Assembly: GCA_002868855.1 (NCBI GenBank)
Contig: PKUM01000054.1
Span: 1 to 61,591, forward strand
DNA length: 61,591 bases
DNA from: Chromatiales bacterium
GTDB taxonomy: Bacteria > Pseudomonadota > Gammaproteobacteria > Steroidobacterales > BM003
Reading direction: 5' to 3'
Under the pieces are notes generated by a model. It saw nothing but the letters and a program-made list of their open reading frames with translations, searched no databases and had not been told where the DNA came from. The position numbers and the translations under genes are program-made. Positions 8,432-59,511 of this stretch are shown here, piece by piece (positions within the stretch are counted from its first letter, which is position 1; each line of letters starts with the position of its first letter).

Positions 8432-9091
8432 ATGCCAAAAATCCAGCGACAAATCGCACGATCCGGCACCGCCACACGGGGCTACGCAATCCTGTTGGCC
8501 ATGCTCGCTGCGACGGCCAACTGCCTTGCCGCTGCTCCGGCGCCGGCACCCGGGATGTTCCTCGTCGCGAGTCGCAGCCTCGTGGACGGGAATTTTGCCG
8601 GCACTGTCGTTCTACTCACGCGCTACAGCGCGGACGGCGCAATGGGACTGGTCGTAAACCGCCCGGTCGGTGTCGGCCCGGACGAGCTGATCACCGACAT
8701 TGACAACGTCAAAAACTATCAAGGCGAATTGCATGGCGGAGGGCCGGTAGCGATACACAACATCTTCATGTTGATTCGCAGCGACCAGGCGCTGCAGTCC
8801 GCCCAACACGTATTCGCCGACGTCTACGCGTCGCACAGCCGCGACCTGCTGGAGTCATTGCCTGCGGATCACTTTTCCCGCGAGGTAATGCGATTCTACG
8901 CCGGATACGCAGGCTGGGGCGCGGGCCAGCTGAATGCGGAAATCGCTCGCGGCGACTGGCATCTGGTGGCGGCAACCACGGAGGCAATATTCGGCAACGA
9001 TTCCGACCAGGTGTGGAAAAAACTGCTGCCTCCCCCTGCCGCGATCATCGCTGCACACGACTCACTGCACCGCGCTTCGATTGCGCGCTGA
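8432..9091 (+). CDS. algH: YqgE/AlgH family protein (UPF0301/DUF179)
   Basis: ATG at 8432. Motifs GMFLVASRSL.D.NF..TVVLL, GLVVNRP and YAGYAGWGAGQL are characteristic of the family. It carries an unusual N-terminal signal-like extension. Confidence 0.7.
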   Translation: MPKIQRQIARSGTATRGYAILLAMLAATANCLAAAPAPAPGMFLVASRSLVDGNFAGTVVLLTRYSADGAMGLVVNRPVGVGPDELITDIDNVKNYQGELHGGGPVAIHNIFMLIRSDQALQSAQHVFADVYASHSRDLLESLPADHFSREVMRFYAGYAGWGAGQLNAEIARGDWHLVAATTEAIFGNDSDQVWKKLLPPPAAIIAAHDSLHRASIAR

Positions 9092-54438: not shown

Positions 54439-56073
54439 TTAGTCCCTGGCTTGTGCGGGGTTTTCGTCGACCGGCATCGTTCGGATGATATCCAGCTGTT
54501 GCGGCGTCACCGCTCCGTAACCGTGCATCGACCGTATCTGATCGGGAACCAGAGCCGAGGCATCGAGCCAGTCCACAAACCAGCGCATCACCGGAATCCG
54601 GGCCCGATCCGGAAATCGCTCGAGCGGCGCAGGTGTAAAAAGGTCCGACTGGAACAGCAACTTCTGCCGCGGCAGCCACACCACCAGCATCCCCTCGACA
54701 TGCGGATTGGCACCGACGTTAATCACGCGCATCTCGTTCCCGGGGTCGGCGATTCGTTTTTCGCCACCAACCGGCTCGCTTTTGACCAGTTCCTCGCGGC
54801 CGGACAGCGCATCGGGATTGAGGCTGACCCGCGCCGTTACCGTGCGCTCTATTACCGGCAGTGTCTGCGGCGCGGCGATAAAGGTCGCCCCGGCGGCGAC
54901 GAAAGGCCGGACTCCCCCGGCATGATCGCTGTGATGATGCGTCAACACTACGAAACGAGGCGGCTTTCCTGGAAAATCCCGCTGCAACACATCGAGCAGT
55001 CGTTGTCCGATAGAACTCGAGGTTTCACCGGCGACCCAGTTCCTTGCCGGGAGTTGCTGCAACTCGTTCCAGCCAGACGGGGCGTCGACGACGGCCACAA
55101 AATCGGCGAATTCGACTATCAGCGGATGAAAACCGGGCCGAATATTCGGAACGACGTACACGCCATCCGCCAGCTCCCGAATCTGCGGCAGCGCAGGCGC
55201 CACCGGCGTCGCCGCGCGATCGTCACCGCCATCGGGCACCGCGGGCAACACGAATTCATCAGGTAGTAGCAGCAGATCGCGATCGACGCCTGCCCGGATA
55301 AAGGTGTAACGAACCTTTTTCAGCATTCGTCCGCCGAGGGTGATCTCATAACCCTGCGGATATGCACCGATCGCAGCAACGTCACGCCAGGCATCATATT
55401 TCCAGCGCACGGTCGTATCTCCGAGCGTAGGCATGTCCAGCAAGTATTCGACTGCCACCGGCCGCCGCGTACCCGGATCGATGAAAATGCTAAGGCCCGA
55501 ACCGTCCGGCAGCGAGTAGGCGACGGTATCGTGATCGAGACCATCGATGCTGCGGCGCCCCAGATAACGAATCGTTTGACGGTGGTCCAGCGCATCCAGC
55601 AGCAGCAACTGCGGCACCATCCGCGCATAGCGCTGCCGTTCATCGGCCTGGTCCACCCCGGTAAGCCAGTAGGCGGCCGTGTTGACGAAGTCTGCCAGCA
55701 ACAACGGCCTGTCCGGTTCGAACAGATAGCGCAATCGCTCTACCGCGTCGGCATTTGCATGAGTATCCGACTCATAAGCCGCCTGCCCGGAAACGGAATC
55801 CAGGGTCAGGCTCTCGCGTAAACTGTATTGCCCGGGGTCAGCCGCACTCATCCCCTGCTTGCGGGTCGCAAGATCGACGAACCCTTCGCCACGCAGAGTA
55901 ATTCCGGCGGCCAACGCCGCCTCGCCGCCGATGGCCGACAGACTTTGTTCGACCAGCTCAATACCGCGTCGGTAGGAATCCAGCGTGGGTTCGGCCGCAA
56001 GCACCGGAAGTGCCTGCAGGAACAACGTCACCGCGACTATCAACCGAGCGCCCGGACTGCCCTGCAAATTCAA
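54439..56073 (-). CDS. Secreted MBL-fold metallo-hydrolase
   Basis: Signal peptide ...LFLQALPVLAAE and the HxHxDH motif LTHHHSDHAGG. Confidence 0.8.
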   Translation of the reverse strand: MNLQGSPGARLIVAVTLFLQALPVLAAEPTLDSYRRGIELVEQSLSAIGGEAALAAGITLRGEGFVDLATRKQGMSAADPGQYSLRESLTLDSVSGQAAYESDTHANADAVERLRYLFEPDRPLLLADFVNTAAYWLTGVDQADERQRYARMVPQLLLLDALDHRQTIRYLGRRSIDGLDHDTVAYSLPDGSGLSIFIDPGTRRPVAVEYLLDMPTLGDTTVRWKYDAWRDVAAIGAYPQGYEITLGGRMLKKVRYTFIRAGVDRDLLLLPDEFVLPAVPDGGDDRAATPVAPALPQIRELADGVYVVPNIRPGFHPLIVEFADFVAVVDAPSGWNELQQLPARNWVAGETSSSIGQRLLDVLQRDFPGKPPRFVVLTHHHSDHAGGVRPFVAAGATFIAAPQTLPVIERTVTARVSLNPDALSGREELVKSEPVGGEKRIADPGNEMRVINVGANPHVEGMLVVWLPRQKLLFQSDLFTPAPLERFPDRARIPVMRWFVDWLDASALVPDQIRSMHGYGAVTPQQLDIIRTMPVDENPAQARD

Positions 56074-56214
56074 AATCGACCCTCCTTAAGTCGTTCCGCC
56101 GCAGACCGACCATGTTGCAACTGTACTGGTTGCAGCCGCCCCGCTCGACTACCTTTTTAGCATGTGGACAATCTGCGCGGGCCATACCGGCCCGCTTCTG
56201 CACGGAGCAGCGGC

Positions 56215-58215
56215 ATGGCAAAAAGGCGCTCAGGCACGACAAACAAGGCTCCGCGGCGAAGATTCGACGCGCGTCCCGATGGCATCGACTTTCGTGACCA
56301 GATGTTTCAGCCGACCCTTGTCGAGGTTCCTCCGCGCATTCCGCTGGAGGACTATCTGAAATGCGATCCGCCGCTGCTCGATCAGGGCGTCGAAGGCGCT
56401 TGCACCGGTTTCGGGCTTGCCGCGGTTTGTCACTACCTGCTGAGAAACCGCCGGATCGAACCGGACAACACCCCGGTAAGCGCGCGGATGCTGTATGAGA
56501 TGGCGCGCCGATACGACGAATGGCCGGGAGAGGAATACGAGGGCTCGAGCGCGCGCGGCGCCATGAAAGGCTGGCACAAGCACGGCGTATGTTCCGAAGC
56601 GCTGTGGCCGCACGTCGCAGGCCAGCGCGATATGCGGCTCGGCACCAGGCGCAGCCGAAATGCCGCGCAGCGCCCTCTGGGCGCCTATTTCCGAGTCAAC
56701 CACAAGGACCTGGTGGCGATGCATGCAGCACTGGCCGAGGTCGGGATCCTGTTTGCCACCGCGCTCGTCCACAGCGGGTGGAACAGGGTCGATGGCGACG
56801 GCAATATTCCGCGGCACCGGCGAATGCTCGGCGGCCATGCGTTCGCGATCGTTGCCTATGACGAAGACGGCTTCTGGATTCAGAACTCCTGGGGCTCGGC
56901 CTGGGGCAAAGGCGGATTTGCGCGAATAACCTATTCCGACTGGCTGGACAACGGGATGGACGCCTGGGTTGCCCGGCTCGGCGCACCCATTCGCATGTTT
57001 GACAGCGACATCGTGCCCGGCCGCGGTACCGGCATTGCGACGACCAGTCTGGCGTTCGAGGATATACGGCCGCATCTGATCAGCATTGGCAACGAGGGAA
57101 CATTGCGGAAGAGCGGTACATTCGGCAATGACCGGCGCGTCGTGGAGGACATTTTCCGCGGGCATTTTCCGCGAATCACCAGGAACTGGCGACGCAAGCG
57201 ACTTTTGCTCTACGCACACGGCGGCCTGGTCCCCGAAAAGAACGCCATCCAGCGAGTGGAGAATTATCTTGAGGCGCTTCGCGGCTCGCAGGTCTATCCG
57301 GTCGCGTTCATCTGGAACACCGATTTCTGGAGCACTATCCGGAATATCCTCGAAGACGCGCTACGGCGCCGGCGCAGCGAAGGCCTCCTCGGCGATGCCA
57401 AGGACTTCATGCTCGACCGGGTCGACGATGCGCTCGAGCCGCTCGCCCGGGTCTTATCCGGAAAGCTGCAATGGGGTGAAATGAAAGAGAACGCGCTGCG
57501 CGCGAGCACGCGCGAGGATGGCGGTGCACGACTGGTCGCCGCAGAGATCGCGGCACTCGCGGCGCGCGAACCCGGCCTCGAAATCCATATCGCCGGGCAC
57601 AGCGCGGGCAGCATCTTCTGCGCGCCGCTCATCCAGCTTCTTTGCAGCGATGGCAAAATCGAAGCCGGACCTATGCGCGGCGAGCAGGGTCATGGCCTGA
57701 ATGTCGGCCACTGCAGTCTGTGGGCGCCTGCATGCACGGTGTCATTGTTCAAGCAGACCTATCTCCCCGCGATCGATTCGCGCAGGCTATCGACGTTCGC
57801 ATTGTTCAACCTCAACGACGATACTGAGCGCGACGACCATTGCGCCCGGATTTACAACAAATCGCTTCTGTACCTCGTCTCGAACGCGTTCGAGGAACGG
57901 CAACGTATCCCGGTCATGCGCGAGCACGGCGAACCTCTGCTCGGCCTCGACAAATTTGTCACGCGCGACCGCGGCCTGCAAAAGTTGTTGCGGCACCGAT
58001 TCGCGGAGTATGTGATCGCACCCAACACCAACGCAATCGGACACAAGGATGCATCGCATGCACGTAAACACGGCGACTTCGACGACGATGTCGCAACGGT
58101 CAAAGCGACGCTGGCGCGAATAACCGGGGTAAAGGAATTCCGGCGCGCACTGCACTTTCCGCGCTCGAAATCATCGACCCGCGACCGCCGCAGGACCCTC
58201 GCGCGAAAGCTCTAG
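56215..58215 (+). CDS. Fusion protein: N-terminal papain-like (C1) cysteine peptidase + C-terminal alpha/beta-hydrolase (GxSxG) domain; no signal peptide
   Basis: ATG at 56215 (MAKRRSGTTNK...). C1 motifs: DQGVEGACTGFGLAAV (Cys), GGHAFAIVAYD (His) and WIQNSWGSAWGKGGF. The second half has LLLYAHGGL, IAGHSAGS, LWAPA and KHGDFDDD. Confidence 0.8.
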   Translation: MAKRRSGTTNKAPRRRFDARPDGIDFRDQMFQPTLVEVPPRIPLEDYLKCDPPLLDQGVEGACTGFGLAAVCHYLLRNRRIEPDNTPVSARMLYEMARRYDEWPGEEYEGSSARGAMKGWHKHGVCSEALWPHVAGQRDMRLGTRRSRNAAQRPLGAYFRVNHKDLVAMHAALAEVGILFATALVHSGWNRVDGDGNIPRHRRMLGGHAFAIVAYDEDGFWIQNSWGSAWGKGGFARITYSDWLDNGMDAWVARLGAPIRMFDSDIVPGRGTGIATTSLAFEDIRPHLISIGNEGTLRKSGTFGNDRRVVEDIFRGHFPRITRNWRRKRLLLYAHGGLVPEKNAIQRVENYLEALRGSQVYPVAFIWNTDFWSTIRNILEDALRRRRSEGLLGDAKDFMLDRVDDALEPLARVLSGKLQWGEMKENALRASTREDGGARLVAAEIAALAAREPGLEIHIAGHSAGSIFCAPLIQLLCSDGKIEAGPMRGEQGHGLNVGHCSLWAPACTVSLFKQTYLPAIDSRRLSTFALFNLNDDTERDDHCARIYNKSLLYLVSNAFEERQRIPVMREHGEPLLGLDKFVTRDRGLQKLLRHRFAEYVIAPNTNAIGHKDASHARKHGDFDDDVATVKATLARITGVKEFRRALHFPRSKSSTRDRRRTLARKL

Positions 58216-58299
58216 CGAGGACCAGTACACTGCTGCCCGATTCACGCGATAGAATCGGATCTTCGTATTTGCATGCCGGGCCGGGAAGAGACAAGCACC

Positions 58300-58740
58300 A
58301 TGAATTCAAAACTCGCTTGCCTACTCATTGCCGTCGTCACCGCTGCGCTCGGTGCCTGCGGATCGGCTGACGACAGCGCGGAATCCGCGACCAACAAAGA
58401 GGCTGCGCCGATGGCTGCAGTAACAGGCAACGTTTTCTACCTGCAGCGAATCGCGCTGCCGGACGATGCTCAGGTACGGGTGACGCTGGCCGACGTCTCG
58501 AAGATGGACGTCGCAGCCGAGGTAATCGCCGAGCAGACTCTGTACGGGCCGCTACAGGTGCCGGTTCCGTTCCGCCTCGAGTACGATCCTGCGCGGATCG
58601 ACGAACGCATGAGCTATTCCATCCAGGCGCGGATCGAAAGCGGCGGAAAATTGTTGTTTATCACGACCGAGAGCCACCCGGTGATAACCCGGGGGAACCC
58701 CATCGAGCTTGAGGTCCGCGTCGATCCCGTCAAACGCTGA
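58300..58740 (+). CDS. YbaY-family lipoprotein
   Basis: ATG at 58300. Lipobox AALGACGS. VTGNVFYLQRIALPDDAQVRVTLADVS...PFRLEYDP..ID....YSIQARI matches YbaY-type lipoproteins. Confidence 0.75.
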   Translation: MNSKLACLLIAVVTAALGACGSADDSAESATNKEAAPMAAVTGNVFYLQRIALPDDAQVRVTLADVSKMDVAAEVIAEQTLYGPLQVPVPFRLEYDPARIDERMSYSIQARIESGGKLLFITTESHPVITRGNPIELEVRVDPVKR

Positions 58741-58758: not shown

Positions 58759-59511
58759 TTACTCTGCCCGGGCTGCGGGCGGGCGGCGCACCCATATCCA
58801 GCCCTCCCGGCGCGCCAGTTCGAGATTTTCCGGAGGCATCGAGCGTCCGGACAGAAAATCCTGCCCGGCGAGGACGCACAACATCGCATCGAATGCGTCT
58901 GCACTCTCGGTTGCCGCCGCCACACCCGGAGCGATCTCGAGTTCATCTCCCAGGGCGTCGAGCAGCCCATCGCGGATATGGCGCTGATGCCTTCCCTTGT
59001 AACCCGTGCATTGCAAACCGCGCACCGACAATGTCGCCGCCGGATAGACCTCGATGACACCGATTTCGAGCAGATGCCCCCAACCCCACAACAGCGGTAC
59101 CGGCTGGTCGCATAACTCGCGTACCCGATCCAGCAGTCGCAGCGCGGCATGGGCCGCCCGGGCAATTCGATCGGCGGCTACATCGAGCGGCTGCTTGCCA
59201 ACCTTGTCCCTGACGAAGCGGTCGGTAGAGCGACGAAAAACAACGTTGGGCTCGACGGTGATCGGCTCACCGGCGCGGTGTCCGGCCAGCGACTGCGCAA
59301 ACGGCAGCGGCCATCCGAGCGGGGCATCCAGCGCCAGCAATCCGCTGTGCCGACCCTTCAGCCAACCGGCGATGATCGTGGCCGGATCCTCGCTGCGGCC
59401 CGTGGTCGCCTCGACGATCCTCGCCCCCGAGGTGCCCAGCTCAGCGAGGGCAATACCGACATTGGCCGGTTGCGCCGCACAATCGACGCCAATTATGCGA
59501 ATAGCCGTCAT
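58759..59511 (-). CDS. DUF429 family protein (predicted RNase H-like nuclease)
   Basis: IIGVDCAA..., LALDAPLGWP, EVYPAAT, DAFDAMLCVLAG and EGWIWV are the usual DUF429 landmarks. Confidence 0.7.
   Translation of the reverse strand: MTAIRIIGVDCAAQPANVGIALAELGTSGARIVEATTGRSEDPATIIAGWLKGRHSGLLALDAPLGWPLPFAQSLAGHRAGEPITVEPNVVFRRSTDRFVRDKVGKQPLDVAADRIARAAHAALRLLDRVRELCDQPVPLLWGWGHLLEIGVIEVYPAATLSVRGLQCTGYKGRHQRHIRDGLLDALGDELEIAPGVAAATESADAFDAMLCVLAGQDFLSGRSMPPENLELARREGWIWVRRPPAARAE

Follow-up and report, generated by a model that had tools for sequence, protein, structure and literature searches.

The 61,591-nucleotide contig PKUM01000054.1 of a Chromatiales bacterium (assembly GCA_002868855.1), referred to here as the window, carries a gene for a protein of 666 amino acids in which a papain-like (C1) cysteine protease is followed by an alpha/beta-hydrolase (ABH). 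This gene raises the question of what two hydrolytic domains do in a single chain that carries no export signal. Both domains were present with their catalytic sets intact under strong selection, the fusion was widespread and genomically stand-alone, and the hydrolase was recurrently paired with proteases. The answer that we tentatively put forward is that the protein may be a self-contained, protease-coupled, lipase-like effector, latent and envelope-damaging, which would serve in conflict or programmed death; gating by proteolysis, a lipid as the substrate, and the role in the cell are what we infer beyond these observations.

Catalytic domains of the C1-ABH protein

In the N-terminal half, Pfam assigned aa 56–240 to Peptidase_C1 (PF00112) with 30.6 bits against a gathering cutoff of 20.7, and PHROG 16701 'peptidase' matched the protease half with an E value of 1.6e-15. 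The PDB sequence search gave xylellain (PDB ID: 3ois) as the best solved relative (E 1.7e-12), and Foldseek also ranked it first (E 1.5e-13, TM-score on the target 0.72, identity about 25%), with all of the top 50 PDB matches being papain-family structures. These searches agreed in placing the N-terminal half in the papain family, as had been claimed in an earlier annotation made without database searches (the sequence-only reading), and all motifs quoted there were found at their places in the protein. The N-terminal half had the same Gln-Cys-His-Asn set as xylellain, and the alignment of the two proteins opened at a shared P-D-x-x-D-x-R-D entry motif. With these four residues in canonical order and spacing, the N-terminal half is, as judged by sequence and predicted fold, a bona fide papain-family domain. 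Whereas the solved xylellain chain of 291 residues is a single domain, the protease of the window protein is joined to a hydrolase of about 365 aa. The basic tail ahead of the protease may be a short pro-segment. Neither a signal peptide, a lipobox, nor a transmembrane segment was found in the protein sequence, and Pfam detected no trafficking domain. The highest 19-residue hydropathy window (aa 167–185) lay in the core of the C1 domain, and the N-terminus was basic and hydrophilic, which supported the earlier view that the protein is not exported. Prokaryotic C1A peptidases without a signal peptide have been described as intracellular (PMC10380794).

The C-terminal half had no match of its own in Pfam, NCBIfam, or PADLOC, and PDB sequence and profile searches with it returned nothing better than an E value of about 0.5, at the nucleophile elbow. 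An AlphaFold2 (AF2) model of the domain, built from a 39-sequence alignment, had a predicted local distance difference test score (pLDDT) of 92.5 and a predicted template modelling score (pTM) of 0.91. Strands and helices alternated in this model, and the GHSAG elbow was located after strand 181–187 and before helix 190–202 (model numbering). The predicted Ser-Asp-His triad and the HGG oxyanion motif of the model bore out the assignment of this half to the ABH fold in the sequence-only reading. The same five of the 39 family members that lacked Ser463 also had a degraded HGG motif, and this joint loss indicated that the two elements belong to one catalytic unit. The catalytic residues of both halves were invariant in 20 full-length homologues.

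The best PDB fold matches of the hydrolase model were minimal ABH esterases and lipases (E 1.4e-3 to 1e-2, probability ≤0.97, TM-score 0.27–0.46), and none of the solved structures matched at E ≤ 0.001. The best structural neighbours were an acetyl-xylan esterase/cutinase, an archaeal lipase, and a yeast serine hydrolase, and lipase-type neighbours were also found among viral predicted structures. The suggestion of the sequence-only reading that this half might be DUF900-, PGAP1-, or lipase-like held below the Pfam thresholds: 10 of the 39 members gave sub-threshold matches to DUF900 (PF05990; best E 1.3e-4), two to PGAP1, and two to Lipase_3. Relatives reached DUF900 at E values of 1e-4 to 0.05 (for example, P0268 with 19.2 bits against a cutoff of 20.5), and a precomputed PF05990 label was found on two relatives; the C-terminal half of the window protein itself gave no DUF900 match at all. 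DUF900, PGAP1, and class-3 lipases are thus the nearest Pfam families of the module, a likeness supported by its lipase-type structural neighbours. Esterases, cutinases, lipases, and PGAP1-like proteins as structural neighbours, together with DUF900 as the closest Pfam family, support a lipase-type activity. By these sequence and model comparisons, the module is a putative lipase/esterase-like serine hydrolase at the outer margin of known families. Cinquedea, a bactericidal phospholipase A, hydrolyses phosphatidylglycerol, and most of its homologues carry DUF900 (bioRxiv 10.64898/2026.06.10.730825); cinquedea is a secreted single-domain protein, whereas the window protein is non-exported, has two domains, and lacks a DUF900 match.

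A loop in the helical lid of the hydrolase combined flexibility with conservation. The pLDDT fell to 55–83 over model residues of about 91–130, the only poorly modelled ABH stretch besides the C-terminal tail, and the conservation of the loop (0.84) was the highest of any region in the C1-linked clade. The motif RRRR-S/P-E-G (aa 384–390) was located at the start of the lid, an invariant G436 followed the long lid helix, and an R-x-x-G signature was kept in the lid loop of divergent clades. A loop that is flexible and yet the most conserved region shows the pattern expected of a recognition or cleavage motif; aa 384–400 are therefore a candidate site for recognition or cleavage by the protease.

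Table 1. Positions of the features of the fusion gene, its neighbours, and related loci (window coordinates unless a locus is named).
Feature	Position	Strand	Details and basis
Shine-Dalgarno-like GGAG	56204..56207	+	7 nt upstream of ATG; read from sequence
C1-ABH fusion gene	56215..58215	+	666 aa, ~75 kDa, isoelectric point 9.5; coordinates include stop codon
Basic N-terminal tail, aa 1-14, MAKRRSGTTNKAPR	56215..56256	+	disordered, poorly conserved; pLDDT <50; mean column identity 0.35; no hydrophobic stretch
Papain-family (C1A, xylellain-type) cysteine protease domain, aa 15-256	56257..56982	+	Pfam, PDB sequence, Foldseek, PHROG
Gln57, oxyanion-hole Gln, 6 residues ahead of catalytic Cys as in papain	56383..56385	+	20/20 homologues; 41/41 rows of divergent set (window protein included)
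Cys63, predicted catalytic nucleophile, EGACTGF	56401..56403	+	invariant in 20 homologues
His208, predicted catalytic His, GGHAF (GGHAFAIVAY)	56836..56838	+	invariant in 20 homologues and divergent set
Asn224, predicted catalytic Asn, QNSWG block, WIQNSWGSAWGKGGF	56884..56886	+	invariant in 20 homologues and divergent set
Inter-domain linker, aa 257-280	56983..57054	+	variable, disordered; pLDDT <50; column identity 0.44
Divergent ABH (lipase/esterase-like) domain, aa 281-645	57055..58149	+	AF2 domain model, fold matches, sub-threshold DUF900
HGG oxyanion-hole motif, aa 335-337 (LLLYAHGGL)	57217..57225	+	H 33/39, G 36/39, G 38/39 family members
Helical insertion (lid), aa 371-452	57325..57570	+	secondary structure of models
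Lid loop, aa 384-400, RRRRSEGLLGDAKDFML	57364..57414	+	basic, flexible, conserved; model confidence and clade conservation
Nucleophile elbow GHSAG, aa 461-465 (IAGHSAGS)	57595..57609	+	Ser463 at 57601-57603; Ser 34/39, Gly465 39/39
Asp541, putative triad acid (LNDDTERDD)	57835..57837	+	37/39 family members
Y547-x-K-S550 motif	57853..57864	+	Tyr 39/39, Ser 39/39 across hydrolase family
His619, putative triad His (KHGDFDDD)	58069..58071	+	39/39 family members
Basic C-terminal tail, aa 646-666, LHFPRSKSSTRDRRRTLARKL	58150..58212	+	modelled as low-confidence helix; clade consensus RSASSLRDRR
Metallo-beta-lactamase (MBL)-fold gene	54439-56073	-	neighbour of fusion gene
YscW/YbaY-type lipoprotein gene	58273-58740	+	neighbour of fusion gene
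DUF429 protein gene	58759-59511	-	PF04250, E 4.7e-14; PADLOC candidate defence family PDC-S44, E 6.8e-13
DUF7363 + CHAT protease gene, Agromyces marinus	L175:7393-8958	+	
ABH-caspase fusion gene, A. marinus	L175:9001-10878	+	another DUF7363-like gene further downstream
Trypsin_2 + C1-ABH-like gene, Paracoccus aminovorans plasmid IV	L171:5071-7602	+	843 aa
Protease-only viral homologue, ~250 aa	L091:1139-1912	+	catalytic residues intact
Protease-only viral homologue, ~250 aa, from MNRTLDARPD Met	L093 ORF (open reading frame) ending at 8741	+	catalytic residues intact

Distribution and conservation of the fusion

More than 6,000 database proteins matched the window protein, and the best 120 matches were 616–693 aa long with at least 92% query coverage and 57–64% identity. 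A scan of one genome per species identified at least 570 carrier species, belonging to about 15 phyla and having the fusion at the same length. The phyla included Pseudomonadota, Nitrospirota, Planctomycetota (with anammox bacteria), Bacteroidota, Acidobacteriota, Chloroflexota, Verrucomicrobiota, Gemmatimonadota, Myxococcota, Desulfobacterota, Cyanobacteria, and Spirochaetes, and large or complete chromosomes with the fusion included those of Gimesia alba, Nitrospira, Brocadia pituitae, and Nitrospira moscoviensis. Among the carriers were also cultured strains, such as Variovorax sp. J22G73, Flavobacterium akiainvivens, and Larkinella. The closest genome, that of an uncultured gammaproteobacterium (locus L008), encoded a 90% identical protein with synteny on both sides of the gene. 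The sequence-only reading had named a frameshift or an assembly artefact joining two genes among the findings that would undo it. The same length in so many proteins and species, the large or complete chromosomes, and the syntenic relative refuted this explanation, which nothing favoured and which can be dismissed; the fusion is genuine.

The mean identity between phyla was 57.9 ± 3.2%, compared with 58.7% within the Gammaproteobacteria, and some pairs from different phyla were far closer (90.7% for Sulfuricella and a gammaproteobacterium, 82% for a member of Lentisphaeria and a gammaproteobacterium). The patchy distribution, the absence of conserved neighbours described below, and the cross-phylum pairs of up to 90.7% identity indicated that the gene behaves as an accessory gene. 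By these sequence comparisons, it is an old accessory gene that passes horizontally between lineages, and purifying selection on it is unusually strong from end to end. Across loci L008–L087, about half of all positions looked fixed, and the uniformity of identity between phyla was striking for a patchily distributed accessory protein of 666 aa. One phylum label may need correction: the locus annotated 'Paludibacter sp.' (L004/L021, JASGLA010000008.1) shared flanking genes with loci of proteobacterial and Steroidobacteraceae metagenome-assembled genomes (MAGs), and its C1-ABH protein was about 81% identical to that of the proteobacterial MAG L026, so that the assignment to Bacteroidota looked doubtful.

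Of 40 divergent fused relatives, 37 retained the protease Cys and 35 the hydrolase Ser, and each residue was lost independently of the other. Pseudo-enzymes occur among the divergent C1-ABH proteins (P0132, P0163, P0181, P0188, and P0202, also P0243 and P0248): five had Gly in place of the hydrolase Ser together with a degraded HGG motif, three had no protease Cys, and P0132 lacked both nucleophiles. His619, Tyr547, and Ser550 were invariant even in these variants.

The database annotation of the family was 'C1 family peptidase' only, a look-up by exact sequence returned no entry for the window protein, and literature searches found no description of a C1-ABH fusion. The statement in the sequence-only reading that this is not a described system is consistent with these results and with the absence of any match to the protein in PADLOC and NCBIfam.

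Partners, genomic neighbours, and viral homologues

An exhaustive search with the C-terminal half yielded about 2,065 representative clusters of the hydrolase family. Besides the hydrolase alone (about 340–440 aa), the commonest multidomain form was C1 + ABH, to which a further N-terminal domain could be added (Amidase_2, GH19, Tlde1, a second ABH of the DUF7379 type, or trypsin). In other members, the hydrolase was followed by a caspase (C14), either directly or as the central part of Amidase_2 + ABH + caspase and DUF7379 + ABH + caspase proteins, or by a clostripain (C11). Thus three unrelated cysteine-protease families are joined to the same module, C1 on its N-terminal side and C14 or C11 on its C-terminal side. 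This recurrent, convergent pairing argues for a functional dependence between the hydrolase and its protease, and the range of fusions strengthened the analogy with modular effectors drawn in the sequence-only reading.

In Agromyces marinus (AP027734.1), the ABH-caspase gene was located 42 nt downstream of a CHAT-protease gene on the same strand, and this group of genes may constitute a multi-protease cascade. The gene downstream of another ABH-caspase fusion (641 aa, locus L090) had no Pfam domain. In the protein from plasmid IV of P. aminovorans, Trypsin_2 occupied aa 87–237 ahead of the C1-ABH-like region, to which the window protein aligned at about aa 311–695; the gene was divergent from a hypothetical gene of about 7 kb.

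For the analysis of neighbouring genes, ORFs were called in 80 loci and all genes within 6 kb were clustered. No conserved gene was found within this distance in the 80 loci beyond the local synteny of close relatives. When Pfam and PADLOC were run on the 139 nearest neighbours, there was neither a recurrent small immunity-like gene nor a dominant family among them, and no secretion-system family was included in the 25 Pfam families that these genes most often matched. A survey for defence islands or type VI secretion systems (T6SS), which had been proposed along with the effector analogy, therefore gave no T6SS or immunity-gene link among the flanking genes. Defence-model matches were scattered: MADS components occurred in a few loci, and Mokosh, SoFic, caspase, and subtilase once each. 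One homologue was near RHS/YD-repeat and Fic genes, a TetR gene followed the Sinorhizobium homologue, and none of 35 loci had a holin, prophage, or integrase context.

The positions of the MBL and YbaY genes given in the sequence-only reading for the two sides of the fusion gene were correct. A functional link to them was rejected: neither gene was conserved among the 80 loci, and the MBL gene was mostly gone in the closest relative. The two neighbours are incidental. Window positions 54758–56126, comprising most of the MBL gene, were absent from L008, where about 97 bp separated the flanks, and since this locus was otherwise syntenic, the MBL gene represents an indel difference between close relatives. 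The PADLOC match of the DUF429 gene to PDC-S44 occurred once more among the 139 scanned neighbours, most likely from L008, and nowhere else. A longer form of the fusion protein starting from GTG at 56164 was possible; ATG at 56215 was preferred because of the GGAG 7 nt upstream and because all homologues began with 'MA..K/R' at the equivalent Met. A sigma-70 promoter scan found no site.

About 200 viral contigs encoded xylellain-type C1 proteins, and phages are reported to have acquired such genes (PMC10380794). Two of the viral proteins, from L091 and L093, consisted of the protease only. They started at a conserved DARPDxxDFRD, ended with ...WACRLGVPVII at about aa 261, that is, at the first linker residues of the window protein, and were 53–57% identical to aa 15–260 of the latter. 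Their median identity to the C1 domains of bacterial fusions (52–57%) lay within the range of the family (43–100%). A head-closure-like gene adjoined the L091 protease gene, indicating that L091 is a genuine phage fragment. A full-length relative was found in only one viral contig (L092), at 33% identity. The protease-only genes could be ancestral to the protease half of the fusion, derived from it by truncation, or antagonistic, and they are compatible with phage-host interplay around the C1 protease.

Proposed proteolytic gating and competing explanations

According to Kaur et al. (2020, PMC7159879), caspase domains never occur in bacterial conflict systems without an ABH gene. In Lysobacter capsici, the hydrolase (LcHydrolase) is a zymogen that LcCaspase cuts twice around the lid at R|G sites, and the cut form kills cells; the substrate of LcHydrolase was not known in the published work (Evans et al. 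2025, PMC12642450). The window protein likewise has a cysteine protease paired with an uncharacterised lid-bearing ABH. On its side, too, there is a link to caspases, since relatives of its hydrolase are fused to a caspase and the gene of one of them seems to share an operon with a CHAT-protease gene; and where LcHydrolase is cut around the lid, the window hydrolase has a conserved, flexible, basic lid loop. In contrast to the caspase-like LcCaspase, the window protease has the papain fold (C1) and is not a caspase. A further difference is that the window protein has both parts in one polypeptide and no linked sensor (STAND, vWA-MoxR, or WD40). Pairing with a protease was found in the window protein (C1) and in many relatives (C14 or C11) but not in the stand-alone relatives. 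On paper, the window protein would be a fused version of the hydrolase-caspase module, with a papain-type protease replacing the caspase.

The mechanism that we propose is as follows. In a cytoplasmic single chain, the xylellain-type protease and the lid-bearing lipase/esterase-like hydrolase would be functionally coupled in cis. The protease would gate the hydrolase by limited proteolysis, either in cis or between copies, with the cut most plausibly made at the disordered linker (aa 257–280), the conserved basic lid loop (aa 384–400), or both. Once freed, the hydrolase would attack some envelope component that contains an ester linkage, with membrane phospholipid as the likeliest target, and the outcome would be a latent self-damaging effector for abortive infection or programmed death that needs no separate sensor gene.

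Several points weigh against this proposal. Autoprocessing and gating are proposed from sequence comparison and analogy, and the likeness to LcHydrolase was drawn from its published description. The published R|G motif has no literal counterpart; the motif here reads RRRR-S/P-E-G, and no literal R-G pairs were present. The full-length AF2 model had a pTM of 0.53, which made inter-domain contacts unreadable. Stand-alone hydrolase relatives at three loci (in Arthrobacter and two other genomes) had no protease neighbour and adjoined TetR regulators in ordinary contexts; the protease is therefore not obligatory family-wide. PADLOC gave no match to the window protein, sensor families (STAND, vWA-MoxR, WD40, and similar) did not recur among the 139 nearest neighbours, and the scattered defence matches are families listed without a background comparison. 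Such flat, high conservation between phyla is not usual among immune genes and would fit an enzyme under constraint of the housekeeping type, and the gene was stably syntenic in the closest relative.

The same conservation and synteny favour a different explanation, that of a constitutive bifunctional catabolic or turnover enzyme whose protease and esterase act in sequence on one cytoplasmic peptide-plus-ester substrate, such as muropeptides or peptidoglycan-recycling intermediates, lipopeptides, or lipoprotein remnants, with no gating and no conflict role. The TetR genes beside stand-alone hydrolases without a protease and after the Sinorhizobium homologue fit such an enzyme, as does the lack of a clear defence-island signal, and the extra domains Amidase_2, GH19, and Tlde1, all of which act on peptidoglycan, could reflect a shared class of substrate. 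However, the gene is patchy and horizontally transferred and has no conserved pathway neighbours (transporters, regulators, or recycling enzymes). The partner was swapped among the unrelated C1, C14, and C11 folds, as is typical of regulatory or effector modules, one relative clustered with caspase and CHAT domains, and the active sites were lost independently in the pseudo-enzymes. We consider a catabolic enzyme unlikely on balance but a serious contender. MARTX toxins combine a cysteine protease with an ABH effector, and the protease autoprocesses the chain. By analogy with such multi-effector architectures, the window protein might be a secreted or injected antibacterial or anti-eukaryotic toxin of the polymorphic-toxin, T6SS, or MARTX type, with the protease freeing the hydrolase after delivery; the homologue near RHS/YD-repeat and Fic genes and the relative with Tlde1_dom, a domain named after the T6SS effector Tlde1, also point this way. 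Against it are the absence of a signal peptide, transmembrane segment, or trafficking domain and of conserved immunity or secretion genes in the 80 loci, and a uniform length and sequence without the hypervariable termini typical of polymorphic toxins. No homology to MARTX toxins was detected, and the window protein is small and without repeats, a secretion signal, or a type I secretion system context. We regard a toxin as very improbable.

The viral homologues suggest a further alternative, a domesticated phage-derived lysin or autolysin whose peptidase and esterase would degrade the envelope in the manner of an endolysin plus lysin B. Phages encode close C1-only homologues in addition to their many xylellain-type C1 proteins, the Amidase_2 and GH19 domains of relatives also occur in phage endolysins, and Lysin B was among the weak structural neighbours. 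This similarity was insignificant, however (E >0.1), the 35 loci had no phage context, and the single full-length viral relative was distant; we regard this origin as very improbable. Protease-only phage genes would have another meaning if the window protein were an immune or suicide device that consists of a single chain and has no sensor, with the protease as both trigger and activator that cuts the lid loop of its own lipase domain and makes it a membrane-destroying phospholipase. The protease would be unleashed by an infection cue, for instance a protein or a protease inhibitor from a phage, a change in redox state, or removal of the basic pro-segment at the N-terminus, and the phage homologues would act as decoys or antagonists. 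This version seems to us doubtful, though conceivable. A function other than all of those considered here is also unlikely, but it carries appreciable weight, and the protease-coupled effector remains the reading that we tentatively prefer.

The family is large, with thousands of sequences in at least 570 species, unusually conserved, and functionally blank. If gating of the hydrolase by the protease is correct, the 'protease-effector' logic of bacterial immunity would extend to papain-type proteases in a fused, sensor-less format, and the compact single-gene system would allow zymogen activation to be dissected with two point mutants. If the single-chain device is also correct, it would represent a fourth, papain-fold class of protease-gated effectors together with a new ABH effector family without a solved structure. 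If gating is wrong, the protein would still be an unexplored cytoplasmic bifunctional hydrolase whose extreme conservation needs explaining.

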